46,717 nt of DNA from Escherichia phage vB_EcoS-IME253: the sequence record NC_047810.1. One strand, written 5' to 3'. The position numbers and the translations under genes are program-made. The notes beneath the pieces are model-generated. The model was not told where the DNA came from. It saw only the letters and a list, made by a program, of their open reading frames with translations, and did no database searches. How positions within the stretch are numbered: the stretch's first letter is position 1; every line of letters begins with the position of its first letter. Below, in pieces: positions 4,446 to 46,253 of the stretch.

Positions 4446-6029
4446 TCACCCCAACAGTCGTGGATTAATGTAAACTTTATCACCAATCAGGCACGTATAG
4501 TTTTTCTCATCAAGCATTGGCAGTAAGTGATCTTTAATCTTTGTCATTACACCAGCCTGAGCTTCGAACGGCTTAACCTTACGAGCCGCTTCATATAGAG
4601 AACGAATACCCACTACTCCTTTACCGTTCTTGCCTTGCTTAATTAGAATATCAATCAGCTTATTCATCTCGGCATTGTCGCCAGCGTGACCAGCGGCGTT
4701 TGCAGATGACAGATAAGTCTTGCTAAGTTCATGGAACATAATTACAGCTTCTTGCATGGTGTCGAGCTCGATCTCTCTGGACTTCTGTGGACTACCGCCA
4801 TTTGGGTTGAACCAGTTGCGCACAGTGTGAAGAACAGCTGCAATCCTTATGGCCTGCTTATCGAACTTACCCAACGCGCCGCGCAACATTGTATGTGAAT
4901 ACTTCCCGCCATCTGCAAGGTGAGGTTCCATCTCCTGACGCGCACGGTTGAGGTATTTCATCGCTGAGTTGCTTACTGTCAACTTAACATCTTGCTCGTT
5001 CATGATCTCATGAACAAGACGGAAGTAGTCGGCCTTCAGGCCACCATCAATTGGCTCGTAAGTTGAATTTCCATTCTCATCAACGAATACACGCTCACCC
5101 AGGAATGACTTTTCACGGACGAGAAGGAAACGCTCCGATACACCGATACCACGTGCGCCAGCGTTCATTATCGCGTTTATTGTCTCGTCCTGCGCAATTA
5201 CAGAGATACAACCCATAGCAACGAAACTCATGTTGTTCTCTGCATTAGCACGCGCGATAGATACGTTACCAGCATCCCATGCCTTGAGTACGAGTTCGCT
5301 GTTCGTTTTCTTCGAGCCGTCACCATAAGTCATGCCAAGCAGTGAGTTCACGCTCGTCGCCTCATCCGAGATGACCGCGAAGTTGCCCTGGCGGTTGTTT
5401 ATTCGCGCAAGACCTTCCGGCGTGGTATCTGATACAGGGAAAACGATATCGCATAGTCTCTCGAGCTTTTCCTCAAGTTCCTCCTTTTCCTCAAAGAGAG
5501 ACGCCATCTCTGATGGAGATTTTTCCTGCTTCATCTCTTTTGATAACGCAGATAGTTTGGCCATAATCTTTTTACGCTCATGCTTTCGCACTTCATTAAG
5601 CCGCTCAGTCTCAGCAATCATTGGAGCAATTGAAAGTGAGTTAATTGCTGATTTACCAGTCGATGGTGGCTGGCTTGTCACGACATAAAGAGAAGTAGGC
5701 TGCTGAGTTCCATGATACTCAACTGTAAATCGGCCTAGCATCGCAGCGGAAATACACCCCAGAAAGTGCATATAAGCTGACGACTCAGGGAACTGAACGG
5801 AACGGGCAATATTGGCTGACAGCTTACCAACAACATCAATGTCATTACCGAGTGAGATTACTGGATACTTGTCATTTGCAGCATCAATCTCGACAGGTGC
5901 TTTCCAGAATGATTGAGACTGGCGATAGCCATTGGCATTAATGGCGACGCGCAGGGGCGGGAGGTTGTCCGCGGCTGCAATTGCCATAACCTGTTCAACA
6001 GATAGTTTATCTTCGTTGAAATCAAACAT
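4446..6029 (-). CDS. large hypothetical protein (527 aa) with P-loop-like STGKS segment and coiled-coil region
   Basis: Long ORF with RBS aaggag; N- and C-terminal segments homologous to the 174-aa product of 8721..9245. Confidence 0.6.
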   Translation of the reverse strand: MFDFNEDKLSVEQVMAIAAADNLPPLRVAINANGYRQSQSFWKAPVEIDAANDKYPVISLGNDIDVVGKLSANIARSVQFPESSAYMHFLGCISAAMLGRFTVEYHGTQQPTSLYVVTSQPPSTGKSAINSLSIAPMIAETERLNEVRKHERKKIMAKLSALSKEMKQEKSPSEMASLFEEKEELEEKLERLCDIVFPVSDTTPEGLARINNRQGNFAVISDEATSVNSLLGMTYGDGSKKTNSELVLKAWDAGNVSIARANAENNMSFVAMGCISVIAQDETINAIMNAGARGIGVSERFLLVREKSFLGERVFVDENGNSTYEPIDGGLKADYFRLVHEIMNEQDVKLTVSNSAMKYLNRARQEMEPHLADGGKYSHTMLRGALGKFDKQAIRIAAVLHTVRNWFNPNGGSPQKSREIELDTMQEAVIMFHELSKTYLSSANAAGHAGDNAEMNKLIDILIKQGKNGKGVVGIRSLYEAARKVKPFEAQAGVMTKIKDHLLPMLDEKNYTCLIGDKVYINPRLLG

Positions 6030-7553: not shown

Positions 7554-7779
7554 TCGTTAGATTTATTGATTGTTGCGGATATTGCAATTATTACAATGAT
7601 TATTGCACATTCAGCAATATTGCTTCAGATGAAATGATGTCTTTGATTGTTGCGAAAAGTGAAATGGAGTGGCGAGTGAGTGAATGAAAGAGTGATGGAC
7701 TACCATACAAGTTTATTTTGATTCTGGCCGAGCCATTCCTGAGCTGACGCGTAATTGTGCGTAACTCATGTATAGGGCC

Positions 7780-7916
7780 TGTATACTGTGTAACGATTTG
7801 GCATAAGCATACGCGGCATACGCATTTTTACGCATTAGTTACAATAAAATATCTATATATAACAACCCTTTATCTATATTATTATTATTATATATATCTA
7901 TGTATACTGTGTAACG
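7780..7916. repeat. pair of 16-bp direct repeats tgtatactgtgtaacg flanking the AT-rich core
   Basis: Identical 16-mers at 7780-7795 and 7901-7916; region also rich in GTAAC/GTTAC and GCGTAA/TTACGC pentamers. Confidence 0.55.
7827..7916. repeat. AT-rich 90-bp repeat, copy A (core ttattattattattatatatat)
   Basis: About 85 percent identical by eye to 36941..37030; sits in a 545-bp non-coding divergent region. Confidence 0.6.
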
Positions 7917-8184
7917 GCTATCTAGGGGCGGCATCTGTCAAATTTGATAATATTGCCCACTAATATATAAGGGAGCCATTCCGCCAGGATAATAGGGCCA
8001 TATGCAGACAATCACCATTCAGTATGCGTTACACGATATACTGCCTACTTACATTAGGCGCAGCTAGGCCTCCAGGGCAAAAATGTTTCCAGGCCTGTTT
8101 TTTACATGTGATTACTATTGACTTACGCGTTAACTACCATCATAATAGCCTCACTTAAACGCAGCAACCAAATGAGGTAACGAG

Positions 8185-8721
8185 ATGAATAAGGTAACTT
8201 TAGGTGATGTAATTCGTGAGATGGTCCGCCAGGCGATTAAGTCCGACAAGAAACTATGTGTAGTTCCAGTTCGAAAGATATTCAACATGGTCAACGGGTA
8301 TGATTATCCGGATGAAATCATCGACGAGGAAACTGGAGAGTTCAAAACGCCTGGTCGTGAAATCGCAGGCCTGAAAAGTTCATACATCTATAACACCGCC
8401 GCAAGAATGCAGGAGCTTCGCGATATTGATATGCACGTAAAGCATCGCTTTATCTGGCTGGCGTCAGGCGAGGAAACGGTAGCGCGCAAGGTTGATGGCG
8501 ATGGCGCGGACAAGAACCTTCTGATCCAGCTTGAGCCTGGTGCTCTTAAGCCGACAAAGCGTAAGACTGCAGATATTGAGAAAGAGGCAGCCACCATTGA
8601 AAGGTTTAAGTCACGACTACTCAAGATCGCGCCGAATATTATAGACCTGCAAGGCGAACAAAAAGAAGGCGCGCTTATTGCCCTGGCACGCTACTATGAA
8701 ATGATTAAGGAGGCTAACTGA
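8185..8721 (+). CDS. hypothetical protein (178 aa)
   Basis: First rightward gene after the AT-rich divergent region; RBS gagg. Confidence 0.5.
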   Translation: MNKVTLGDVIREMVRQAIKSDKKLCVVPVRKIFNMVNGYDYPDEIIDEETGEFKTPGREIAGLKSSYIYNTAARMQELRDIDMHVKHRFIWLASGEETVARKVDGDGADKNLLIQLEPGALKPTKRKTADIEKEAATIERFKSRLLKIAPNIIDLQGEQKEGALIALARYYEMIKEAN

Positions 8722-9245
8722 TGTTTAATTTAAACGAAGAGAAACTGACGGACGAGCAGATTATGAATATTGCTATCCAGGATGATCTGCCGCCACTGCG
8801 GGTTGCAATCAATGCTAACGGTTATCGTCATGTTCAGCACCTCTGGGGCCAGCCTGATGCATCGGAAGTCTACAGAGATGAAGCGCTGGGAGTTCTGATT
8901 AAGTTGATCAGGAAGATGGCAAGGAACGGAAAGGGAGTGGTGGGTGTCAAGTCTGTACACGAAGCTGCACGTAAGGTTAAGCCGTTCGAGGGTCGAAATG
9001 GAATCATGGCGCGCATTAAGGATGAGCTCATCCCCGCACTCGATAAGATGAATGTTACCTGTCTAATTGGAGATAAGGTTTATGTCCACTCGGCAATCAT
9101 TGATGAGTACTGGCAACCAAACTTCAAAACTTACGAAGGTGAGCACACTAGTAGACTACCATACCACTTGCTGTACAGTGAGGGTGAGGTGGAGATGGCC
9201 GTAGAGTTCTATCGGAAAGCTAAATCACTTCTGAACGGTAAATAG
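8721..9245 (+). CDS. mini-paralog of the 527-aa protein (174 aa; shared N- and C-terminal modules only)
   Basis: N-terminus MFNLNEEKL..LPPLRVAINANGYR and C-terminal NGKGVVG..EAARKVKPFE..CLIGDKVY match 4446..6029; TGATG coupling to the upstream gene. Confidence 0.55.
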   Translation: MFNLNEEKLTDEQIMNIAIQDDLPPLRVAINANGYRHVQHLWGQPDASEVYRDEALGVLIKLIRKMARNGKGVVGVKSVHEAARKVKPFEGRNGIMARIKDELIPALDKMNVTCLIGDKVYVHSAIIDEYWQPNFKTYEGEHTSRLPYHLLYSEGEVEMAVEFYRKAKSLLNGK

Positions 9246-9285: not shown

Positions 9286-9317
9286 GGCCTTATTGAAGCA
9301 AAGCAAGAGAGGATTGG

Positions 9318-9548
9318 ATGGAGAGAAATAAATACGAAAGAGAGATTGTCGGGCTTAATGGCGAGCGCGCTATTGTTGATGTGTATCGCACGCTATCAGC
9401 ATTCAACGTTACAGACCCAGCATGTCAGCACGCAATCAAGAAGCTGCTATGTATGGGTTTACGAGGCCACAAAGATGTAATTACTGACCTTGATGATGCA
9501 ATAGACTCACTGAACAAGATGAAAATTTACCTGGAGCAAACGAAATGA
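9318..9548 (+). CDS. hypothetical protein (76 aa)
   Basis: ORF downstream of the element at 9242; RBS gagagg. Confidence 0.45.
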   Translation: MERNKYEREIVGLNGERAIVDVYRTLSAFNVTDPACQHAIKKLLCMGLRGHKDVITDLDDAIDSLNKMKIYLEQTK

Positions 9549-11633: not shown

Positions 11634-11711
11634 GCTCTGCTAGCTCAACAGGATAGCAGCAACGACCTTCTAAGTCGTAGGTTACTGGTTCGAATCCAGT
11701 GCGGAGCGCCA
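11634..11711 (+). tRNA. tRNA-Arg (anticodon UCU)
   Basis: Hand-folded cloverleaf: acceptor GCUCUGC/GCGGAGC, D-loop with GG, anticodon stem ACGAC/GUCGU with loop CUUCUAA, T-arm ACUGG-UUCGAAU-CCAGU, discriminator G and encoded CCA. Confidence 0.75.
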
Positions 11712-23482: not shown

Positions 23483-26458
23483 ATGGCAACAAATGAATTA
23501 GCCGGAATCACACTAGCCGTAGACGTCTCGCAGGTAGACAGAGGTACACAGTCCCTGCGGAAGTTCAGGCAGGCAAACCAGCAGGCCGCTTCCGGCATTA
23601 GTGAGTTCGTCAACGCCGAGCAGGTTGCAAAGAATCAAGCCAGAGACACAGCTCGCGCACTGGCTGAACAGCAATCATCTTTGGCTAAATTGCAAACGGC
23701 TATTGACCCAACTGCGGCAAAGTTCCGTAAACTCCAGGAGGCTGCTGTAGGTCTTGATAAGGCTTTCGCGGCTGGAGTAGTTCCTGATGAGGAGTTTTTC
23801 CGCTTAGGTGAGGCGCTTGAAACGCAGAACGCAAAACTTGCTCGTTCACGTGCGGCACTAACTGAAGAGGGTAGAGCGGCGGCGCAAGCTGCAAAGGATA
23901 AGGCAAAGGCAAAGGCTGAAGCGGATAGATTCATTGCATCACTTGAGCGTCAGGCTCAGGCGGCAACATTGACGCGAGAGGAGTACCTAAAGTTACAAGC
24001 GGCCCAGCTTGGCGTAAGTTCTCAGGCGGCGCCTATTATTGACAGAATCGCCGATGCATCACGGAAGGCAAACACCCAGCTAATTGCTCAGAGCAAGGCC
24101 TTTCAACGCTCTGGCTTAAGCGCAGGTCAATACAAGGCTGCAATCTCTCAATTGCCAGCGCAGATTACAGATATTGGGACATCACTTGCTGGCGGCATTC
24201 CGATTTGGCTTATTGCAATTCAGCAAGGTGGACAAATTAAGGATGCATTTGGAGGTATTGGTAACACATTTAGTTTTGCGCTTGCTGCTTTAAACCCGTT
24301 CAACGTAGCAGTTGGGGTTCTCGGTGGCGCGCTTGTTGCTTTAGGCGTCGGTGCTGCGCAGGCTGAAAGTGAATTCAGGGCGTTAAACTCCGCCATTGCG
24401 TTCTCAAACAACTCCACAATCGCATCAATCTCGCAGGTTAGAGAGTTGGTTAGCTCTGTTTCTGATGCCACTGGTGCAACCAGAGGACTTGTGACTAGCA
24501 TCGCAACAAGCCTTGTTGAGCAAGGAAACCTTACGCTAACGCAGATTGACAAGATTACTAAATCAACAGCCAGATGGGCTCAGTTGACAGGTAAGGATGC
24601 AAAGGAAATTACTGGTTACTATAACCAGATTGCGAGCGACCCAATTCAAGGACTTGCTGATTTAGACAAGAGGTTTAACTTCCTTACACAGGGGCAGTTA
24701 ACAACAATTGAAAGATTGAGAGAGACTAGGGGTGAGGTTGAAGCCGTAACTGCTGCTATTGATATATTTAGCAAATCACAAGAGGCAAACCTTAACGATA
24801 TTGCAGCCCAGCTTACTCCTCTTGAATTGGCCTGGAATGACTTCAGGAAGTACATATCTGATGTATGGGATGCAATTAGTCGCAGAACGGTTGGGGCGCT
24901 AAACCTGTTTGTTGACGTAATCGCCGGAACAATTGAGCAAATTAGGGTCTTCATCAACCAGGGTGATGTGCTGATTGGTGAATTCGTAATTAGCGCAACA
25001 CAGGCACTGCAGAACATCCCCGGCCTTGATGGTGTTGGTGATGATGTTGTCAAGGGACAGCAGAAGATTATCGATGCCGCTAAGAAGCAAAACATTGAGC
25101 TAGAGAAGTCTATCAAGGAGCGCGATGCCAGAATCAGAGAAGGAGAACTTGGCTACGTTACTCGCAGAGAAAATCAGAATACCAATGAGCAGTCAGGCAC
25201 GGATGAGGAGTTTGCAAAAAGGAAGAAAGCGCTTCAGGATGAACTTGATGCGATCAAGAAGAGCAGGAAAGAAGAAAATGGTAGGGTTAAAGAGCAAAGA
25301 GACCTTACAATTGGTTACGAATCTGGCGTACTTGCACTACAGGCACAACTCAAGGTGCTTCAGGAAAACAGGGATATTGGCGCAGTAATAAGCAATGAGC
25401 GCAAGCAGTATCTTCAGGAGGTTGCAAAATTCCAGATTCTTGAGCAAAGGCAGCGTGATGGCTCAATAAAAAAAGAGCAAGCAAGACTTCTCATTGAAAA
25501 GGATAAAGTTCTTGAGTTGGCCAGGCAGAAGGCTGAGCTAGGTGATCAGATTGTTTTGCAAGAAAGAGCCAATAAGTTGGCTGAAGATAACCGCAAGAAG
25601 ATTCTTCAGATTAACAATGAGGCAAGCAATATTGATTTGGGTACTGGATTATCATCTCGTGAACTGCAAAGAGCCAAAGAGATTCAGGCTCTTCAGTCCA
25701 ATCAGGTCAATGCTGGTGGCTCTCTTGATGACGTTGATTTTCAGCAGCTACTGGAAGCAAGACGTAACTTTTATGCCCAGGAGGATGCGCTACGTGAAAA
25801 CTGGCTCGCTGGTGTTAATCAATCCTTTGCCAATTGGGCTGAGAGCGCGACGGATGCATTCTCAATTGCTGGAAGTTTAACCACAACAGTCTTTGAAGGC
25901 ATTACCGACCAGATTACAAACCTCGTAACAACTGGCGAAACAAACTTCAGAGAGTTTACTGTTAGCATCCTTAAACAGATTGCTAAGATTGCAACTCAGC
26001 TTCTTGTTGTAAAGGCCATCGAATCTAGCTTAAGTAGCTTCGGTGGTACTGGTGGCGCTATTGGATCGATTGCATCTGGCTTGGGTTTTGCTGGTGGCGG
26101 CTACACCGGCAATGGCGGCAAGTACCAACCGGCAGGAACGGTACACCGTGGTGAATTTGTATTCACAAAAGAAGCGACGAGCCGAATTGGTGTGAAAAAC
26201 CTTTACGCGCTAATGAAAGGTTACGCAAACGGCTGCGCTGTAGGTGGTCCTTCAGGCTATGCAAATGGGGGTTTGGTTTCTGGTGGAACAGATGTTAATG
26301 TTAGCGGAATAACTGTTAACGTTAATGGCGGTGTTGGTAGCGACCCAGAACAAGCCAAAGCATTGCAGAGTGGCGTTAAGGCAATCGTAGCGGAAGAGAT
26401 TGCTCAGTCCTTCCAGCAAGGAGGAAAAGCGTATGCCTATCTGAGAGGTTTTAACTAA
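23483..26458 (+). CDS. tail tape measure protein
   Basis: 991 aa, coiled-coil rich with Gly-rich C-terminal part; downstream of G/G-T chaperones. Confidence 0.8.
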   Translation: MATNELAGITLAVDVSQVDRGTQSLRKFRQANQQAASGISEFVNAEQVAKNQARDTARALAEQQSSLAKLQTAIDPTAAKFRKLQEAAVGLDKAFAAGVVPDEEFFRLGEALETQNAKLARSRAALTEEGRAAAQAAKDKAKAKAEADRFIASLERQAQAATLTREEYLKLQAAQLGVSSQAAPIIDRIADASRKANTQLIAQSKAFQRSGLSAGQYKAAISQLPAQITDIGTSLAGGIPIWLIAIQQGGQIKDAFGGIGNTFSFALAALNPFNVAVGVLGGALVALGVGAAQAESEFRALNSAIAFSNNSTIASISQVRELVSSVSDATGATRGLVTSIATSLVEQGNLTLTQIDKITKSTARWAQLTGKDAKEITGYYNQIASDPIQGLADLDKRFNFLTQGQLTTIERLRETRGEVEAVTAAIDIFSKSQEANLNDIAAQLTPLELAWNDFRKYISDVWDAISRRTVGALNLFVDVIAGTIEQIRVFINQGDVLIGEFVISATQALQNIPGLDGVGDDVVKGQQKIIDAAKKQNIELEKSIKERDARIREGELGYVTRRENQNTNEQSGTDEEFAKRKKALQDELDAIKKSRKEENGRVKEQRDLTIGYESGVLALQAQLKVLQENRDIGAVISNERKQYLQEVAKFQILEQRQRDGSIKKEQARLLIEKDKVLELARQKAELGDQIVLQERANKLAEDNRKKILQINNEASNIDLGTGLSSRELQRAKEIQALQSNQVNAGGSLDDVDFQQLLEARRNFYAQEDALRENWLAGVNQSFANWAESATDAFSIAGSLTTTVFEGITDQITNLVTTGETNFREFTVSILKQIAKIATQLLVVKAIESSLSSFGGTGGAIGSIASGLGFAGGGYTGNGGKYQPAGTVHRGEFVFTKEATSRIGVKNLYALMKGYANGCAVGGPSGYANGGLVSGGTDVNVSGITVNVNGGVGSDPEQAKALQSGVKAIVAEEIAQSFQQGGKAYAYLRGFN

Positions 26459-36026: not shown

Positions 36027-36716
36027 CTACTTATCTTTAAGTAGCAACTTGATATCAATTCCTAGATTATTCTCAATCAATCCAGTCAGTGCACCTACCT
36101 TTTCCTTAAGTGCGAAGCACTGTGTTTCATACTTGAATCTCAACTCCATCTCATCAGAGCGACTTGACCAGCACTGCCGAGCCTCGCACGCTAGCTCATC
36201 AATCTTCTTGTCAAGTTCCTTATCTGACAGGGTGATTTCAGTAATTCGCTGCTCAGCTACGATTCTCTGGATCAAGTGAGCATTCTGCGCTTGCAGGTAT
36301 CCATTCTTCATTCTTTCCTCTTTAAGTTCATCAATGCTTACCATCTGACTGATTACTTCCGCTTGCTTGTTGATGGTGCTTTGCATTTCTTTAAGCTTAG
36401 CAAGCACTGCGCGACGAACGAACTTTGATTCTCTCATCCCAATCAAAAGCATCTGTTCCATATTGAGCACTGGTGAGTTGATTGACTTTCTATAACCTCC
36501 TCTACCCTCACTCTTGATTACGAAACTTTCGTAGTCAAACTCAAACCCTTCAAGCTCATCCTCTATTCTCTCAACAAAGTCATTGTGTCGAACATTGGAC
36601 TCCCCAGCGATCAACCTCGCTGGGTTGATAACTTCATTTAAAAACTGATAACTATTCATTTTTACGTCTTCATTAAGTAATGCTAAGTTCATTTTCGTCT
36701 CTCTTTTGTTTTTCAT
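36027..36716 (-). CDS. putative regulatory protein (antirepressor-like N-terminal domain, coiled-coil C-terminus); start may be 36692
   Basis: First minus-strand gene downstream of reverse-oriented element 36797-36840; domain call is weak. Confidence 0.4.
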   Translation of the reverse strand: MKNKRETKMNLALLNEDVKMNSYQFLNEVINPARLIAGESNVRHNDFVERIEDELEGFEFDYESFVIKSEGRGGYRKSINSPVLNMEQMLLIGMRESKFVRRAVLAKLKEMQSTINKQAEVISQMVSIDELKEERMKNGYLQAQNAHLIQRIVAEQRITEITLSDKELDKKIDELACEARQCWSSRSDEMELRFKYETQCFALKEKVGALTGLIENNLGIDIKLLLKDK

Positions 36717-36796
36717 TCCTAAGATTTGAGGAGTTAACTAAGTTCTTTTCCTCAATTTGAGGAGGAGTTGACAGCACCATTGCCGCCACGCGCCTA

Positions 36797-36840
36797 AATA
36801 TACCTAAAGATAGCCAGTTGTCTTTAGCAAATCGTGCTAT
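36797..36840 (-). promoter_or_regulatory. palindrome-plus-hexamer element (copy 12, minus orientation)
   Basis: rc atagcacgatttgctaaa at 36823-36840; rc TATATT 36797-36802 (22-nt spacer). Confidence 0.45.
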
Positions 36841-36940
36841 TTATCGACAATTTCACCATAAATCACAGTTACACGTAACCGATGTAACTCGATGTATACA
36901 ATCTCATCCGCGGGAAATGATATACGCGCTGTTACGCCAA

Positions 36941-37030
36941 TTTACGCATTGGTTACATTAAAATATCTATATATATCAACCTTTTACTCTTATTATTATT
37001 ATTATATATATTACTGTGTATATCATGTAA
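36941..37030. repeat. AT-rich 90-bp repeat, copy B
   Basis: tttacgcattggttacattaaaatatctatatatatcaacc...ttattattattattatatatat; matches copy A. Confidence 0.6.
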
Positions 37031-37327
37031 CTACTTCTATAGAGTGTTCCGGTTATAATTTTAATATCATGTGGATTTATACAGTATTGCGCGGCAGCTA
37101 TACCAATGCACCCTCAGCGAGAAACGGCATACACGATATACACGATGTTTACATTGAGCTATGGCTGGCTTGAGATGCCAAAAAGCGTAACTAGTGCCAA
37201 TGCCTACACGAAATTACAAAGATTCACGCGTAAACTTAAATCAACGATTGGCAAAACCAATTGGACTGGTTACGGTGCTGAATATATAGTTACCTCATCG
37301 AAAGCAATCAACCAGAGAGATATATAA

Positions 37328-37522
37328 ATGACCTACTACATTATCAAAGAGAAAAACAACGCACTGTTCGGCGACTGCTACTTTGGAGGAGAGGCCGGTT
37401 ACACCACGGATAAGAACGAAGCAGACAGATTCGAGACCAAAGGAGAAGCCCGCGATGTACTGACCGGTTACTTCACTGAAGAAGATTTGAAGTCTGTTAA
37501 AGTAGTTAAGGTCAAGGGGTGA
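37328..37522 (+). CDS. hypothetical protein (64 aa)
   Basis: ATG after leader tatagttacctcatcgaaagcaatcaaccagagag. Confidence 0.45.
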   Translation: MTYYIIKEKNNALFGDCYFGGEAGYTTDKNEADRFETKGEARDVLTGYFTEEDLKSVKVVKVKG

Positions 37523-39710: not shown

Positions 39711-42614
39711 TTAAATCAATTTAACAGATCTTAACTGATTACCAGAAGTTGTAGATATTGTTGTTGAACTAACTAACGTCCCAGACAATGCAAACGAAAT
39801 AGCTCCAGTCGATGAGGTTCCAGTAGCAAACCTTTGAGGTGAATCGCTTATAACACTTATCTTATTTGCTGTAAAAGTATTAGTGCCAGAAAAACCAGTA
39901 GTTACAACCAAATCCTGATTGAGTCTAAATCCAAATCCAACAGTAACAGAGGTTGACTCTTTCACAGGAATGTTAAGCCCATTTAGACGCACACCTGAGA
40001 TATCAAAGAAATCACAAGAAGAAAGAAGCGCCATTCTTGAAATGCCTGTTGTTATTGGTAGCGTACTCTGAGACTGTCCATTGAAGTTACATACAAATCT
40101 TGTGTTAATGAAACTAATATCATGATCAACAGAGCCATCAACCGGAGAGGTCGTACCAGATGTTGACTTAACAATACCGCCAACAAATTTTATTGCCACA
40201 GGTCCATTTGGGTCTGAACCATAGTAAGCTCTAAGCCTTTCAACATTACAATTAACCATGTAATAGCTCCCCCTCTGGTTTGTCTCAAATATAGGGTATC
40301 TCGAGCTTCCGACAGGTGAAGAGAGATCATATATAGAAACGTTAGGGTTATGAAGACTGTTAGCACCCATGAAAACGATATTATTTGATAAAATCCCCTT
40401 TATACTTATGTTGGTAGTAAACCTTCCAGTCAATGAGCTTTCAGAATTTGTCATGTCCGAGAATGGCCCCTTAAACCTTGAAAAATCAATAGTAAGTCCC
40501 AAGCTAGCAGATGAAGGGAAAGCCGACATGTTAACATCTGATATTGAAACGTCAGAAGGGAAAAGCAGCGCACCATCTCTACTTGAGTAGAATAAATTAC
40601 CAGGATGAGAACTGTAGTTTCCTGACTTGAAGTTAAGGCCCTTAATCCTAACTGAGTTAAACAGAGTGCTCTTTATTGGTGAGCCAGCTACAGGTCCATT
40701 TCCTTCATAAGAAATTCCATTTATCAAACCCGTCCCGGTCAGGCTAGTACTTCTTGTGCCTGTAAAAGTAATGTTATCCATGTAAAGGTTTCCGTCAAAG
40801 AAACCTCCAGCGTCCGCCCTTGTTGTTATGATATTCCCATTCGTATATCTAGACGCATTAAATGCACTATCCCTTATATGCAAATCGCCAAGACCAGTAA
40901 CAACAACACCACGGGCACCGATATTGCAGTTTTCAATCTTGAGGTAGTTATGAAAAGGCATGTGAAAGTCAATTCTACTTAGATCACAATTTTCAAAAGT
41001 TACGTTTGCGCAGTTGTTACTACCATTTGCGCCCCATCCTTTACCGTTAACCCTTGCGTTCATAATCCTTACGTTCATTGATTCACCTATTGATAAGGCG
41101 TATGAGTAAAGCTCACCAGAAGAATCTCTTGCGTCTGCAACAGACTCGGCAAAAAGACCATCAACTGTGATATCATATGAGTTAGCTATTGCCAACCTTG
41201 TATCGCTAAACACTTGCGTTATCGGCTTGTTAATAAAGGAAATATCTTTTATTAACAACCTTGTAGAATTATTAACATAAACTATCTGATACCGTGTCGA
41301 AAGACTTTCATCTATAGTTAAACCCTTGATTTCCTGAGTTGTCTTGTTTATCTTCAAGGCTCTAACTGATGTAACATTATTTCCAAGATCATACTTCAGT
41401 GAGTTCTCCAGATAACCCCTATTGTAAACCCTATTGAGTTCAATTCTTTTCTGAACAGAATCCCTATATGTGTACATGTCCTGATTTGTATAAAAAACAA
41501 TAAAACAACCATCAAGGTCACGATTTTCAGATATAGAGTCGAACAAATTACTTCCAGCAGCTCTTGATTCATTAGACATGGAGTTAAAAGATGAAACAAC
41601 AGATGACGAAGCGTCATAAGTTGTAGGTTGCCCGTTGGTTATAGTTATCTGCCCGGTCCATGAGGATGATGGTTTTATAACAGAGCCTGTAAAATCAGCA
41701 CTCAATGAACCAATATCAATATAATCGGAACCAGAAACAAGAAAAACACCATCATTCTGCTTTATCTTTAGATTTTTGGATTTTGCGTAGTTTATCGCTC
41801 GATTTATACCTGAAATATCATTAGTAATACCATCACCAACACAACCAAAATCATAGAAACTAACATAACCTTTAGATCCTAGTTCAGACCACGAAGAATC
41901 ACCAATCCCACCAGAAGAATATGGTGTCGAGTTTTCCGGGACTGTCTTAGGTAGATCTCCCATCCATACGTATGACTTTGGCTTACCGGAGTCAAGCCAT
42001 ATCATTTGTTGATTTCTTGACTCTATTACACCTCCGGACTCAAATGATGAAATTAAGGCACCAGATAATGAAATTAAGGCACCAGATAATGATTCCGCAT
42101 AACCCCGTGCAGCTTGTTCTGATGACATTGCTAATCCAGCACTCGCTGCAGCAGAAGCCATATCACCTGCTACCTGGGCAGCATTCTGCGCAACCTGTGA
42201 TGACATGTTTACAACATCGCCATACTGATTGTTAACCTGTGTTACTTTAGATTCAAAATCATTAAAGTCAAAGTTGTTAAATGCATCAACTGCATCAGCA
42301 ACCTCAGTTTCACGTGACTGATAGTAACGAAGAGTCTCAGCAACATCTTGAGCTAATCCCTGAACGGTAATCCCATCATGAGCAAGAATAGCGTAACCAG
42401 TTCCAGCAGGAACAGTTTCAGAATTAGGGTTATAAACATTAATCTGCGTATCGCTGATGATCTCAGAGATGGTGTAAATTTTTACTGGCTCAGTTTTAAA
42501 TACAATGGTGGCACCTACGCGAATCAGTGTAAGCGGTGCTTTCCATGTTGTCCCGACACCAGTCACCTCGCCGTTTGCAGCTAATGATGCGGTTCCCAAG
42601 TCATAAATTGCCAT
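39711..42614 (-). CDS. tailspike / lateral tail fibre protein (beta-helix type, putative)
   Basis: About 970 aa, Ser/Thr/Asn/Gly-rich; N-terminal MAIYDLGTASLAANGEVTGVGTTW resembles conserved tail-fibre anchor domains; ATG 42614 inferred. Confidence 0.6.
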   Translation of the reverse strand: MAIYDLGTASLAANGEVTGVGTTWKAPLTLIRVGATIVFKTEPVKIYTISEIISDTQINVYNPNSETVPAGTGYAILAHDGITVQGLAQDVAETLRYYQSRETEVADAVDAFNNFDFNDFESKVTQVNNQYGDVVNMSSQVAQNAAQVAGDMASAAASAGLAMSSEQAARGYAESLSGALISLSGALISSFESGGVIESRNQQMIWLDSGKPKSYVWMGDLPKTVPENSTPYSSGGIGDSSWSELGSKGYVSFYDFGCVGDGITNDISGINRAINYAKSKNLKIKQNDGVFLVSGSDYIDIGSLSADFTGSVIKPSSSWTGQITITNGQPTTYDASSSVVSSFNSMSNESRAAGSNLFDSISENRDLDGCFIVFYTNQDMYTYRDSVQKRIELNRVYNRGYLENSLKYDLGNNVTSVRALKINKTTQEIKGLTIDESLSTRYQIVYVNNSTRLLIKDISFINKPITQVFSDTRLAIANSYDITVDGLFAESVADARDSSGELYSYALSIGESMNVRIMNARVNGKGWGANGSNNCANVTFENCDLSRIDFHMPFHNYLKIENCNIGARGVVVTGLGDLHIRDSAFNASRYTNGNIITTRADAGGFFDGNLYMDNITFTGTRSTSLTGTGLINGISYEGNGPVAGSPIKSTLFNSVRIKGLNFKSGNYSSHPGNLFYSSRDGALLFPSDVSISDVNMSAFPSSASLGLTIDFSRFKGPFSDMTNSESSLTGRFTTNISIKGILSNNIVFMGANSLHNPNVSIYDLSSPVGSSRYPIFETNQRGSYYMVNCNVERLRAYYGSDPNGPVAIKFVGGIVKSTSGTTSPVDGSVDHDISFINTRFVCNFNGQSQSTLPITTGISRMALLSSCDFFDISGVRLNGLNIPVKESTSVTVGFGFRLNQDLVVTTGFSGTNTFTANKISVISDSPQRFATGTSSTGAISFALSGTLVSSTTISTTSGNQLRSVKLI
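42047..42088 (-). repeat. perfect 21-bp tandem duplication inside tailspike gene
   Basis: atgaaattaaggcaccagata x2 on plus strand, encoding SLSGALI-SLSGALI in frame. Confidence 0.8.
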
Positions 42615-42680: not shown

Positions 42681-42702
42681 AAAAAAACCTCCCGAGGGAG
42701 GT
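42681..42702 (-). terminator. rho-independent terminator for primase gene (minus strand)
   Basis: A7 then hairpin cctccc-gag-ggagg on plus strand, i.e. hairpin plus T7 on minus. Confidence 0.55.
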
Positions 42703-43625
42703 TAGTTTAGCAAGTCTTTGGCTTTGTACACTTTCTTGCGTATTCCTGTTTTGAATGACTTCCCGTCATTAGGTATTACCACATCAACATTGCGATCATC
42801 AGCAACAGCGAGAATATCGATATCGCAATCGCGACAAGCAACTCTAAACTTTCGTGATTTGTCGCGGTGCATAACCATCTCCATGTTGTAACAGGAGAAA
42901 GCAACAAAAACCTCACGACACCCAGTAGCAATGTGAACACGTACGCCATCAATAAAATTATCAACAACATAAGTGTAGCCATCAACCTGCCTAGAACCAA
43001 TGACAGCAACAGAATCACGAGTGTAATCACCAGCTAGGAATTTAACATTTGAATCTCCATCAATAAACATTAAGTTGCAGAACTCATCACCAAGACCATC
43101 CTCGTAAACCATCGAGCATGGTACGGCATGAATCATTGAGCCATCCTTAGCTATGCCAACATCGAATCCATCATCAAGATAAATACCTTCATATGTTGTG
43201 AGTGGGCTTGATTCAACTCTTACAGTCCGATCCATGACTTCAAGAACTTTTTCATGATCTACCTGTGCGCCCATTTTGTAACGCTGAGTCCTTGATGCTT
43301 GCTTATTTGCCTTATTAACCACCTCTACAGGGATAAGGTTTAACCACTCAACGAGAACATCTATACATTCACTGAATGACTCCCCCCTCATCTTTTGTAA
43401 CCACAGAATTCCATCGCCTGAGCCACACTGGTTGCAGATAATGCCGCCATCACCTTCTTCGCTAACCTTGTTAGTCCATCGTGCTCGGTCGTTTCCTCCA
43501 CAATAAATACATGGCTGATGCTTTTTGGTCTGGAAGAATTTTGGGTCTGCGCCGCAGATATTGATAAGTGCCTTATCCCACAGGCCGCGCATTCTTGGTA
43601 AAACCTCTTTCTTATCGTAGTGCAT
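42702..43625 (-). CDS. DNA primase-like protein (zinc-binding N-terminus)
   Basis: CIYCGG...CNQCG cysteine pairs near N-terminus; adjacent to helicase module. Confidence 0.4.
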   Translation of the reverse strand: MHYDKKEVLPRMRGLWDKALINICGADPKFFQTKKHQPCIYCGGNDRARWTNKVSEEGDGGIICNQCGSGDGILWLQKMRGESFSECIDVLVEWLNLIPVEVVNKANKQASRTQRYKMGAQVDHEKVLEVMDRTVRVESSPLTTYEGIYLDDGFDVGIAKDGSMIHAVPCSMVYEDGLGDEFCNLMFIDGDSNVKFLAGDYTRDSVAVIGSRQVDGYTYVVDNFIDGVRVHIATGCREVFVAFSCYNMEMVMHRDKSRKFRVACRDCDIDILAVADDRNVDVVIPNDGKSFKTGIRKKVYKAKDLLN

Positions 43626-43683: not shown

Positions 43684-44157
43684 TTACTCTTTAGCTTTTC
43701 GTGCTGCCTCATTAGCGGCCTTGATCTTTCTCCATGAACGACACTCTGGTTTGGTTGCTAACTCGGACTCAGTAACCACACGCAGCATGTGACGCTTCTT
43801 GCACCGTAATGTCAGCGGCTTTCCGTTGCCGTCGAATTGCAGGTCTGGTCGGCAGAATGTAGCGCGAAAACCTTCTCCATTTCGTTTGTAGTAGTTGTGC
43901 GATAGCTGAGCACCACGTGCAGAAATCATACCACGCTTAAACCATTCCTCTACAGCCTGTGGTGTTACCTTTAACTGCTTTGCGATATTCGCCTTTGTGC
44001 CGAAGAAATCAAGAACAATCTCCAGTCGCGCGCGCAACCCTGCCCTTACTTCATCTTTCAAAACGTAGTAACCTGAAGGTCGTTTTCGTTGTTTTTTGTC
44101 TTCAGTGCGGACAGTTCCGTTATTACCGTTGATTGTTCTCTTGTCGACTGTATTCAT
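43684..44157 (-). CDS. HTH DNA-binding protein (putative transcriptional regulator)
   Basis: Basic N-terminus and HTH-like IAKQLKVTPQAVEEWFKRG; sits in divergent region. Confidence 0.4.
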   Translation of the reverse strand: MNTVDKRTINGNNGTVRTEDKKQRKRPSGYYVLKDEVRAGLRARLEIVLDFFGTKANIAKQLKVTPQAVEEWFKRGMISARGAQLSHNYYKRNGEGFRATFCRPDLQFDGNGKPLTLRCKKRHMLRVVTESELATKPECRSWRKIKAANEAARKAKE

Positions 44158-44169
44158 TTCATTACCTCA

Positions 44170-44213
44170 ATAGCATTTTTTGTTAAAAGTCATTCTGATT
44201 TGATGGTAGTATT
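44170..44213 (+). promoter_or_regulatory. palindrome-plus-hexamer element (copy 15, variant)
   Basis: atagcattttttgttaaaa; TAGTAT 44207-44212 (21-nt spacer); upstream of helicase ATG 44259 in divergent region. Confidence 0.4.
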
Positions 44214-44258
44214 GTACTCAATTAAACGCTACAAGACAATTTTTATAGGAATTTAGAT

Positions 44259-46253
44259 ATGTTGCCTATCGAGAAGCTGGTTGCTAACTTTGATAAAGAA
44301 AGAATCAAACAGATTCAGAAGGATTACCAGTTTGGGGAGATAACCCCATACGAGTTCCAATGCGTAACATTTGATGCTATCGGAAAGGCTATTGGGAAGT
44401 ATGAGGCCCCATTTATAGCAGACCTTTCAGTTTCTGCTGGTAAGACAATCATTCTTGCCATGATTGGTAAGCGCATGGAGCAATTGGGATTGCCTTATAT
44501 GGTTCTTTCTCGCCAGTCAGAGATAATCAGCCAGAACTCAGAGGAGCTTCGTAATTTCGGCATCCGTAATAGCGTCTATTGCGCTGGCCTTAACGTTAAA
44601 TCGGTTTACTACCCAACCATAGTTGCCAGTGAGGGTACGGCAGCCAACGGCTTGTTTAAGGGGCTTGGTGACTATGTTCCTGCCGTTATAGCTATAGATG
44701 AGTGTCACATGGTGGACCACATGGATATTGTGGAAGCTGAAGAGAACGAGGAAACATTTGAGCAAATGAGCACAAAGAAAGGCGAGATGGTTTTTAAGGG
44801 TGGCGTAAACACAGGATTGCTTGGCACTGGTCGTGCGCAGTACACGCTAATTATCACCGAGATGAAACGTCGTTGTCGTGAGAGGTATGGTCGTGAGCTT
44901 CGTATATTCGGTCTAACTGGTAGCCCATACCGTAACAACGATCATATTGTCGTTAGCAACCCAAACATCCGCGGATTCTGGCGTAAGACGGTAATTCAGG
45001 TGCCAACCAATTACCTGGTTGATTTGGGCTTCGTGGTTCCAACTGTTTACGGTGAGGTTGGTGATCTGGGTTACGACCTTAGCGAATTTGCGCCAGACGG
45101 TAGTGATGGTGTTAAAGACTTTGGCAAGAAAGAAATGGATGCAATGCAGGAAAAGATTCATCAAAACCAGTCCATGACGCAAAAGATTATGCAATTTGCC
45201 GCAAAGTTCATGGAGACTCGCAACGCTGCGCTTGTGACATGTGCCGGTAAACGTCATTGTGAGGAGGCAGCAGCAGCGCTTCCTGAGGGTGTAACCTGGG
45301 CTATAGTAACTGACTCTACTGGTGAGAAAAAGCGTAGGGAGATTCTTTCTGACGCAGTTGAAGGTAAGTATAAATTCATATTTCAGATCGGTTGTCTCAC
45401 AACTGGCGTGAACGTCCCGCCATGGGATACATCAATCATTCTGCGCAAAGTTGGTAGTATCACGCTTCTTATTCAGCTTTTGGGGCGAGGCATGCGAATA
45501 CTTAAGAAGAAACATAAGGAAATGGGGATGGTCAAGGATGATCACGTGGTGCTAGACTTTGCTGGCACTCTTGATGACATGGCAGAATTATACTTTGATC
45601 CAATCATAGAGGAGGTGCAGGATCAGAAATTCAAGTCCTCTCGTAAAGTTGGGGATAAGTCAAGAGTATGTCAGGCCTGTGGATATAAAAACTCCCCACT
45701 TGCTCGTCGTTGCAATAACGTAATTGACGGAAAGCGTTGTGATAATTTTTTTACATTTCGCTTGTGTGAAGATATAGAGGACCCGCAGACAAAATCTATT
45801 ATTAAGAAAGGTTGTGGTGAGAAGAATGATATTGCCGCTAAAAACTGTCGGTGCTGCGGTGAGATGTTAATAGACCCGAATGCAAAGTTATCTGGGAAAA
45901 TGTATCGTAAAGGAGACTGGTTGCGAGTCTACGACTTTAAGATTGGATTAACAAAGAATCAATCAGGGATTGTTGCCTCATACGAGGTCATGGCTCATAG
46001 TGGTGATAGGTTCCGGGCCTATGAGACGTTTTTTCCAGAGTCAGACCATCGCGTTTGCTCTGTAAGATGGAAAGCATTTTGCTCAACTCACATAGAGAAC
46101 AGGACTGAGGCTTTTAGAATTGGCAGGTTGCGTAATGCTAAGATGATTATGACTAATGCTCACCTTTTTCGTGCGCCATTAAGGATTACGCACAGAAAAA
46201 ACCAGAAAGGTCAGGATATTATCGCCAATAAATCTTTTACTATGGAGGATTGA
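44259..46253 (+). CDS. SF2 DNA helicase with C-terminal zinc-ribbon repeats
   Basis: Walker A SAGKT and DECH box; C-terminal CxxC pairs (CQACGY, CRCCGEM). Confidence 0.7.
   Translation: MLPIEKLVANFDKERIKQIQKDYQFGEITPYEFQCVTFDAIGKAIGKYEAPFIADLSVSAGKTIILAMIGKRMEQLGLPYMVLSRQSEIISQNSEELRNFGIRNSVYCAGLNVKSVYYPTIVASEGTAANGLFKGLGDYVPAVIAIDECHMVDHMDIVEAEENEETFEQMSTKKGEMVFKGGVNTGLLGTGRAQYTLIITEMKRRCRERYGRELRIFGLTGSPYRNNDHIVVSNPNIRGFWRKTVIQVPTNYLVDLGFVVPTVYGEVGDLGYDLSEFAPDGSDGVKDFGKKEMDAMQEKIHQNQSMTQKIMQFAAKFMETRNAALVTCAGKRHCEEAAAALPEGVTWAIVTDSTGEKKRREILSDAVEGKYKFIFQIGCLTTGVNVPPWDTSIILRKVGSITLLIQLLGRGMRILKKKHKEMGMVKDDHVVLDFAGTLDDMAELYFDPIIEEVQDQKFKSSRKVGDKSRVCQACGYKNSPLARRCNNVIDGKRCDNFFTFRLCEDIEDPQTKSIIKKGCGEKNDIAAKNCRCCGEMLIDPNAKLSGKMYRKGDWLRVYDFKIGLTKNQSGIVASYEVMAHSGDRFRAYETFFPESDHRVCSVRWKAFCSTHIENRTEAFRIGRLRNAKMIMTNAHLFRAPLRITHRKNQKGQDIIANKSFTMED

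Follow-up and report, generated by a model that had tools for sequence, protein, structure and literature searches.

Two paralogous modules of putative replication-origin type in a T1-like phage, with a candidate second origin next to the exonuclease VIII/Erf/SSB genes

Two paralogous modules, for which replication-origin-type elements are the best reading of the sequence, are present in the genome of Escherichia phage vB_EcoS-IME253, a T1-like siphophage (Drexlerviridae, Braunvirinae). The window analysed is the whole 46,717-nt stretch of record NC_047810.1. One module lies in region A (7640-8185) and the other in the stretch at 36717-37327 (region B). From its sequence features, region B is judged, with a probability somewhat above even, to be a further origin of replication or a site at which a helicase is loaded, and it may serve as an operator array as well. 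In the sequence-only reading, a module that is either origin-like or bound by a regulator was thought to be present twice, or the phage to have two origins, and this proposal is supported, on comparative grounds, by the analysis described here.

As that reading had it, region B is placed between a leftward and a rightward gene block. Its left neighbour is an anti-repressor-like accessory gene (36716..36027, minus strand; PHROG 8235) and to its right the rightward exoVIII/Erf/SSB block begins. In the phages TR3, EC3a and Rtp, the region is likewise found between a tail-fibre/cor-type block and the genes for exonuclease VIII, Erf and SSB. It was recognisable in 133 phage records, with many Braunvirinae being 92-99% identical across 36700-37330 and Escherichia phage TR3 100% identical over this interval. 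The anti-repressor-like gene is missing from the position left of module B in Rtp, and Rogue1 and Phagiculus instead carry another gene, of pRha/anti-repressor type, to the right of the module. In these sequences, module B is a fixed point, and the flanking cargo is what varies between phages. Several relatives that were assembled independently (MK907251, MK907228, MT446404, KC333879 and DQ121662) have records that end or start within about 50-350 bp of module B, perhaps because assemblies tend to break where the DNA is AT-rich or repeated. Region A corresponds to the conventional genome start in related records, and the T1 record starts about 220 bp from module A. With Rfam at the gathering threshold, no match was obtained in region A or B, and the sole match in the window was a tRNA gene (11634-11708, plus strand). 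The GC skew of IME253 tracked the direction of transcription and gave no origin signal.

A protein-coding role for region B was rejected after comparison of its ORFs with those of relatives. The 93-aa ORF at 36892-37173, annotated as hypothetical in TR3, would encode a Tyr-rich, low-complexity product and is broken after 19-41 codons in Rogue1, ACG-M12, Sf12 and Phagiculus. Between the ORF at 37106-37327 and the 64-aa gene that is conserved (37328-37522), there is a TAA stop codon in frame (37325-37327). Therefore, the earlier description of the region as non-coding holds, its ORFs being either broken in relatives or cut off by the stop codon. In Rtp and EC3a, GAA replaces this TAA and a fusion protein of 132-143 aa is annotated; either this N-terminal extension is an annotation artefact or a nonsense change occurred in IME253 at 37325-37327.

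The claim that region B carries a second copy of a 90-bp repeat was confirmed by a repeat search, in which 7819-7906 aligned with 36933-37020 over 88 nt without gaps at 83% identity and an offset of 29,114 (family D5). The identity of about 85 percent estimated by eye was a fair value, as 7827-7916 and 36941-37030 match at 69 of 90 positions without gaps (77%) and at about 84% when three small gaps are allowed. The possibility had been raised that the similarity is limited to low-complexity AT sequence. However, of the 57 positions that precede the (ATT)n(AT)n tract (36933-36989 versus 7819-7875), 47 match (82%), compared with a background of 15.0±3.3 and a maximum of 31 at any other place when all IME253 positions on both strands were considered. 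Therefore, the similarity between A and B is not just one of simple AT-rich sequence. Outside the core of about 115 nt, the two regions have only short motifs in common (local-alignment z 2.6-3.9); a collinear similarity of about 480 nt produced by MAFFT has weak support there and is not claimed. No third copy of the module was found in IME253 with nhmmer, a match at 41240 being merely AT-rich (E = 0.0095). Nor do A and B seem to have undergone concerted evolution recently in the Braunvirinae, as their identity within IME253 (79%) does not exceed that of several comparisons across genomes.

The left edge of region B contains a copy of the T1-family 21-nt direct repeat, ATAGCACGATTTGCTAAA (36823..36840, minus strand), which faces the leftward gene and is followed by a -10-like TATATT at about 36797-36802. 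Then comes iteron cluster 1 (36868..36899, plus strand), with GTTAC/ACGTAAC, GTAAC and GTATAC words 9-10 bp apart. This cluster includes the palindrome gttacacgtaac, which is the inverted pair previously located at 36868-36879, and is nearly invariant in Rtp, EC3a, Rogue1, ACG-M12, Sf12 and Phagiculus. A conserved block, CCGCGGGAAAT (36908..36918), separates it from cluster 2; in Rtp, there is an excess of CGCGGA/CCGCGG words close to the two cores. Cluster 2 (36921..36957, plus strand) consists of TACGC at 36923, 36933 and 36943 and TTACA at 36953, with a spacing of exactly 10 bp. The AT-rich core that follows (36958..37015) is a candidate DNA-unwinding element made up of AAAATATCTATATATA, an IHF-consensus match and (TTA)5(TA)4. 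The IHF match is exact (TATCAACCTTTTA, 36974-36986) and is one of six WATCAANNNNTTR matches in IME253, and one of just two (ATT) tracts of at least four units in the genome is located in this core. The right-arm iterons GTGTATAT-CATGTAAC (37016..37031, plus strand) repeat the words of cluster 2 as their reverse complement, which means that the two sets are oriented in opposite directions across the core. Finally, cluster 3 (37130..37154, plus strand), with TACAC, TACAC and TTACAT (WTACAY words) 9-11 bp apart, is the sole conserved element in an otherwise variable stretch right of the module.

The paralogous module A (7810..7915, plus strand; nhmmer E = 3e-31) has the same order of parts. Its left arm (7810-7843, plus strand) contains TACGC three times and GTTACA, its AT-rich core (7844-7901) carries a variant of the IHF consensus with one mismatch, and its right arm (7902-7915) reads GTATAC..GTAAC; a cluster 1 is also present (7749-7795). 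Direct repeats of the type TTGATTGTTGCG... (7566-7665, family D12) were detected in region A only. T1 has homologous TGATTGTTGC repeats, one of which contains position 1 of the T1 record, for which a terminal repeat of 2.8 kb is annotated. The repeats at 7566-7665 are probably the pac site, which is missing from region B.

In both modules, the iterons are words of 5-6 bp (TACGC, TTACA, GTAAC and GTATA, roughly YGTAWM) placed 9-11 bp apart; the successive spacings of module B are 10, 10 and 9 bp, and those of module A are 9, 10 and 9 bp. Both arrays leave a gap of 64 bp across the core and have opposite orientation on its two sides. The flanking pentamers pointed out in the sequence-only reading are clearly concentrated at these places: WTACRC plus GTAAC words amount to 18 per 500 nt in B and 16 in A, compared with 2.4±2.3 for the genome and 9 in the next-best window. 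The stability of the duplex was estimated by thermodynamic calculation, and the cores of A and B were the two least stable stretches of IME253, whether 40, 60 or 100 nt were considered at a time. With stretches of 60 nt, the B core was the least stable (dG -56.1) and the A core the second (-56.3), followed by a stretch at -63.2, with a genome mean of -80.9 and a standard deviation of 5.0. The two cores of Rtp, T1 and TLS are likewise the least stable 60-nt duplexes of their genomes, about 5 standard deviations below the mean. A DnaA-dependent, oriC-like origin is unlikely because no cluster of DnaA boxes was present beside the AT-rich cores; the consensus TTWTNCACA was not found in A or B and matched IME253 once, at 26191.

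Both copies are conserved in related phages, a check that the earlier reading had suggested. A search with an nhmmer profile revealed exactly two modules per genome in IME253 (36920-37032 and 7808-7915), Rtp and T1, and in TLS the same pair occupies the same two genomic positions. The pair was found in four subfamilies of Drexlerviridae, IME253 belonging to the Braunvirinae, T1 to the Tunavirinae and TLS to the Tempevirinae. T1 and TLS have almost no alignable DNA with IME253 (coverage of 15% for T1), yet they carry a module at both positions. In the seven phages compared, the pentamers and their spacing were kept while the spacer bases varied, which is the pattern expected of protein-binding sites. 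The words enriched near both cores were TGTAAC, TACGC and TGTATA/TACACG-type words in IME253, Rtp and T1, and GTGAAC/GGAACA in TLS, the latter being suggestive as they fail a strict multiple-test correction. As these words are common to A and B within a genome but specific to a lineage, they point to a binder encoded by the phage itself. The (ATT)n tract ranges from 4 to 7 units between the phages compared. Two generalisations were discarded: a trinucleotide tract is not a universal feature of the module, with none in T1 and just 3 units in TLS, and a single 'GTAA' core shared by the iterons of all lineages was dropped as an over-interpretation.

The main candidate for an initiator that binds the iterons is a DUF3987 helicase identified with Pfam (527 aa; 4446..6029, minus strand), the homologue of T1 gp9. 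Its gene has module A 1.8 kb upstream, in the control region of the operon, and module B about 30 kb away. In the AlphaFold (AF2) model of this protein (pLDDT 89.2), a C-terminal winged helix with the order H-b-H-H-b-b is formed by residues ~450-520, and the best PDB matches of the model with Foldseek were MCM2-7 and archaeal MCM chains (E down to 3e-6, but TM only ~0.35). The core is therefore predicted from the model to be an MCM-like AAA+ domain; the winged helix at the C-terminus is a generic fold. A sequence search of the PDB with the helicase gave nothing significant, and no BLASTP similarity to the P4 alpha protein was found. Analysis with Pfam of 10 selected IME253 proteins, including those of the replication genes, identified the DUF3987 helicase, an SNF2-type helicase and a primase (42702..43625, minus strand), and detected no DnaB-type helicase and no gp38/gp39-type match among them. 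The Zn_Ribbon_Prim domain of the primase is also present in P4 alpha. Helicase activity, in partnership with a primase, has been demonstrated experimentally for a DUF3987 protein (PMC11724360). The iterons themselves are short, degenerate words, and a Cro-like HTH regulator (43684..44157, minus strand), the homologue of T1 gp23, is an alternative candidate binder; the promoter region of its gene (44157-44259) lies outside the dense iteron windows.

A 174-aa early protein (8721-9245, plus strand), whose gene is the second one rightward of module A, is a 'mini' paralogue of the DUF3987 helicase that lacks the ATPase core. It matches the N-terminus of the helicase over ~45 initial residues with 49% identity, and its residues 59-127 match the winged-helix domain with 58% identity. 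Rtp, T1 and TLS do not have this protein, but full-length versions are present in about 109 phage records. This paralogue could compete with the helicase at the iterons or assist it there.

The surroundings of distant DUF3987 helicases (34-43% identical to that of IME253) were also inspected in four phage lineages, represented by five loci that were picked by hand and without a formal control. In all four lineages, an iteron/AT-rich module was found within about 600 bp of the helicase operon, with strong clustering of the motifs in three of them. At locus L017, an operon of HTH, primase and DUF3987 genes is followed by a terminator-like hairpin and then by an AT-rich stretch, the least stable DNA of the locus, which has ACCCCAG/CTGGGGT words on both sides; 6 of the 14 ACCCCA words lie directly after the helicase gene, and the promoter region of the operon is not among the top ACCCCA clusters. 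At L016, 16 of 19 G5/C5 runs surround an AT-rich stretch directly upstream of the helicase operon, and at L020 the same position is occupied by six GGGGT words, an AT-rich stretch and six ACCCC words. The signal at L019 is weaker, consisting of (TAA)10 and CTTAC repeats about 500 bp upstream, with 5 of 14 in the best 400-nt window. This metagenomic contig ends in the (TAA)10 (positions 1-30), about 580 bp upstream of the helicase gene, and the assembly probably broke inside the AT-rich module. As the HTH promoter regions of both IME253 and L017 are not among the top iteron clusters, the helicase is mildly favoured over the HTH regulator as the binder.

Several replication systems have a comparable layout. 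The origins of SaPI elements contain 6-12 penta- or hexanucleotide iterons, which are divided equally between the two sides of a central AT-rich region and are oppositely oriented there, with at least two per side pointing in opposite directions; the SaPI Rep protein, an AAA+ helicase of the SF3 or MCM-like SF6 type that loads itself, reads the iterons with a C-terminal winged helix and works with a separate or fused primase partner (PMC9371898). By analogy, the iteron layout of IME253, its predicted MCM-like helicase with a winged helix and its separate primase resemble this system. In contrast to the IME253 modules, the SaPI ori is single and immediately downstream of rep, and SaPIs are satellites, whereas the modules described here belong to a virulent siphophage of a Gram-negative host. 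In the P4 record, 8-bp type-1 repeats of ori are located at 9310, 9320, 9331 and, inverted, 9353, followed by ~35 AT-rich bp and by repeats at 9396 and 9406, and crr is a second, distant cluster of ori-type repeats that is required in cis. The P4 repeats are 10-11 bp apart; similarly, those of IME253 are placed, 9-11 bp apart, on both sides of an AT-rich stretch, with a second copy that would be the counterpart of crr, and a Zn-ribbon domain is common to P4 alpha and the IME253 primase. However, P4 alpha joins a primase, a D5_N/DUF5906 helicase and a Pox_D5 DNA-binding domain in one polypeptide, and P4 crr is a 120-bp tandem duplication, whereas both IME253 modules carry the full layout. Moreover, the origin or crr adjoins the rep gene in SaPI and P4, unlike module B, with its ~30 kb from the helicase gene.

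The virulent pac-type siphophage SPP1 (~44 kb) has two similarly built origins, oriL and oriR, about 13 kb apart on the circular map; both combine direct repeats with an AT-rich unwinding element, one of them lies in a long intergenic region, and the second origin has been proposed to act in the switch from theta to sigma replication together with an exonuclease, an annealase and SSB (PMC6316719). IME253 resembles SPP1 in having two similarly organised elements of repeats and AT-rich DNA in one phage genome. This resemblance is one of layout alone, with no sequence relationship, and SPP1 uses the origin-binding gp38, the loader gp39 and the DnaB-type helicase gp40, whereas T1-like phages encode an MCM-like DUF3987 helicase and a separate primase. 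In phage lambda, the iterons are about 19 bp long, the ori is activated by nearby transcription, and OL and OR are two copies of one operator set that governs the divergent early promoters. The lambda operators overlap their promoters, whereas most IME253 iterons do not. The iterons of the lambda ori are found beside an AT-rich region, inside the O gene (PMC11447400). Thus, the IME253 modules have the P4/SaPI-type layout of opposed short repeats with one-turn spacing and an easily melted core, in a genome that encodes helicase and primase. Region B groups with the SaPI, P4 and SPP1 origins by layout, whereas BLASTP with P4 alpha and the Pfam analysis of the selected proteins place it in none of these families by protein sequence.

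The favoured reading of region B as a second origin or helicase-loading site suggests how initiation might proceed. A phage-encoded protein, most likely through the C-terminal winged helix of the DUF3987/MCM-like helicase, would bind the phased iterons on both sides of the core, and IHF would bend the AT-rich core. The (ATT)n(AT)n tract would then melt and the helicase load itself, with primers supplied by the separate primase. Divergent transcription on both flanks could add negative supercoiling and thereby ease the melting. Known precedents for two copies are a pair of active origins (SPP1 oriL/oriR) and an origin with an additional cis site (P4 ori/crr), and by analogy either could apply here. 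A more elaborate version, to which little weight is given, is that module B, upstream of the exonuclease, annealase and SSB genes, acts as an initiator-bound switch from circle replication to recombination-driven synthesis of concatemers, that (ATT)n/(AAT)n is a single-stranded loading track for DUF3987 comparable to the DnaA-trios, and that the phage has two origins served by an MCM-like helicase.

The modules also have a constant relationship with promoters. A sigma70-type promoter (TGGACT-17-TATAGT; 37262..37290, plus strand) precedes the 64-aa gene and the exoVIII/Erf/SSB block, and another (TTGACT-17-CATAAT; 8118..8146, plus strand) is present in region A; they are the positional equivalents of the TLS promoters P51 and P01, respectively. 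Just three consensus sigma70 promoters have been described in the TLS genome (PMC11447400), two of which are ~300 bp right of the two modules. In a weight-matrix scan that covered both loci of IME253, Rtp, T1 and TLS as well as the Rogue1 A locus, the best promoter was always on the plus strand, with its start at +246 to +319 from the core centre in the five genomes. An iteron-like word was found in each IME253 promoter spacer, TTACGC at 8123-8128 in A and GTTACG at 37269-37274 in B, which suggests that the same protein also turns these promoters down; the iteron arrays themselves are 100-350 bp upstream of both promoters. A role of module B as an origin would probably be linked to regulation of the early promoter beside it, and the duplicated control of the early and recombination blocks suggested in the sequence-only reading would agree with where the two promoters lie. 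Promoter-like sites are also present within the cores, GTTACA-17-TATAAT on the minus strand in A and TTTACT-18-TATATT in B, and the scan identified a moderately conserved rightward site in the core with its start at about +37. Two predicted promoters are annotated inside the core in the EC3a record. AT-rich cores always carry promoter-like hexamers, and these in-core sites are inconsistently placed.

The 21-nt repeat, ATAGCACnnnnTKnTAAA, occurs in 15 copies in IME253, compared with 0.22 expected, always along the direction of transcription (e.g. at 637, 9242, 14427, 22448, 36823 and 46671). Several copies are followed by a short hairpin, with stems that differ, and by TATAGTTACC (families D1, D7 and D8). 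The repeat was described previously for TLS, T1 and Rtp, with its function stated as unknown (PMC11447400), and it looks like a phage-specific class of promoter. One such promoter-type element is located left of both modules.

These observations give substance to an alternative in which the module is purely transcriptional, that is, a duplicated operator or enhancer array in the style of lambda OL/OR that serves the two early promoters. Early transcription would then be shut off or timed by a regulator of the phage, for instance the Cro-like HTH protein, and the AT-rich core would be promoter-like or UP-like. The conserved distance of ~300 bp between each module and one of the few sigma70-type promoters of these genomes, the iteron-like words within the spacers (TTGAC-TTACGC in A, TGGACTG-GTTACG in B), the promoter-like hexamers of the core with the predictions in EC3a, and the 21-nt element to the left of both modules all agree with it. 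However, most iterons are 100-350 bp away from the best promoters without overlapping them, and the in-core sites are unconserved in position and spacing, the (ATT)n tract that would form the spacer varying from 4 to 7 units. The promoter regions of the HTH gene (44157-44259) and of the L017 operon are not among the top iteron clusters, and a purely transcriptional module leaves unexplained why distant phages have theirs beside the DUF3987 helicase gene, in one case downstream of it after a terminator-like hairpin. This alternative is the main rival, but it is considered to be a minority possibility.

It was also considered that only A is a true origin and that B is an accessory cis site bound by the same protein, either an enhancer like P4 crr or a roadblock like SPP1 oriR; as a roadblock, B would trigger the switch to concatemer synthesis beside the exonuclease, annealase and SSB genes. 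A alone is in the upstream region of the helicase operon, as in the distant phages, B is directly upstream of exoVIII/Erf/SSB, and B has additional, very strongly conserved parts (cluster 1 and CCGCGGRAAAT) that are lacking in the A of IME253; P4 crr and SPP1 oriR provide the precedents. Yet both modules have the same full architecture and equally unstable cores, and no sequence mark singles out B as unable to initiate. Such a division of roles, which is regarded as rather improbable, is a refinement of the origin reading and not an exclusive alternative to it. Least probable is that region B is a site for a host factor or a packaging signal (a DnaA origin, a nucleoid-protein site or a second pac), or that its similarity to A is a chance effect of low complexity. 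The exact IHF-consensus match in B, the general attraction of nucleoid proteins to AT-rich DNA and the position of region A at the conventional genome start, close to that of the T1 record, are compatible with a host factor or with packaging, but the modules contain no DnaA boxes, the pac-like TGATTGTTGC repeats are in A alone (7566-7665) and missing from B, the lineage-specific iteron words argue against a universal host factor, and A and B also match over a good length outside the low-complexity tract.

T1, which belongs to the seven classic T phages, gave rise to the description of a large family, Drexlerviridae, as its founding member; phages of this family are known as laboratory and fermentation contaminants and are a source of candidates for phage therapy. 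DUF3987 helicases are widespread in mobile elements. In the literature searched, no origin was named for any T1-like phage, no experimental data on T1-family origins or mapped transcription starts were found, and no origin was described for DUF3987 helicases. In the study of TLS, it was reported that there are no iterons anywhere in the genome (PMC11447400), and another paper on this group of phages did not find an oriC-like origin. If the reading of the two modules as origins is true, phage engineering would gain, e.g. in the form of minimal replicons or origin-directed interference, and a validated helicase-origin pair would be useful beyond Drexlerviridae. For the T1-type phages themselves, the analysis provides two short candidate origins, both of ~200 bp, in which the pentamers to be mutated are defined and for which a candidate initiator can be named.
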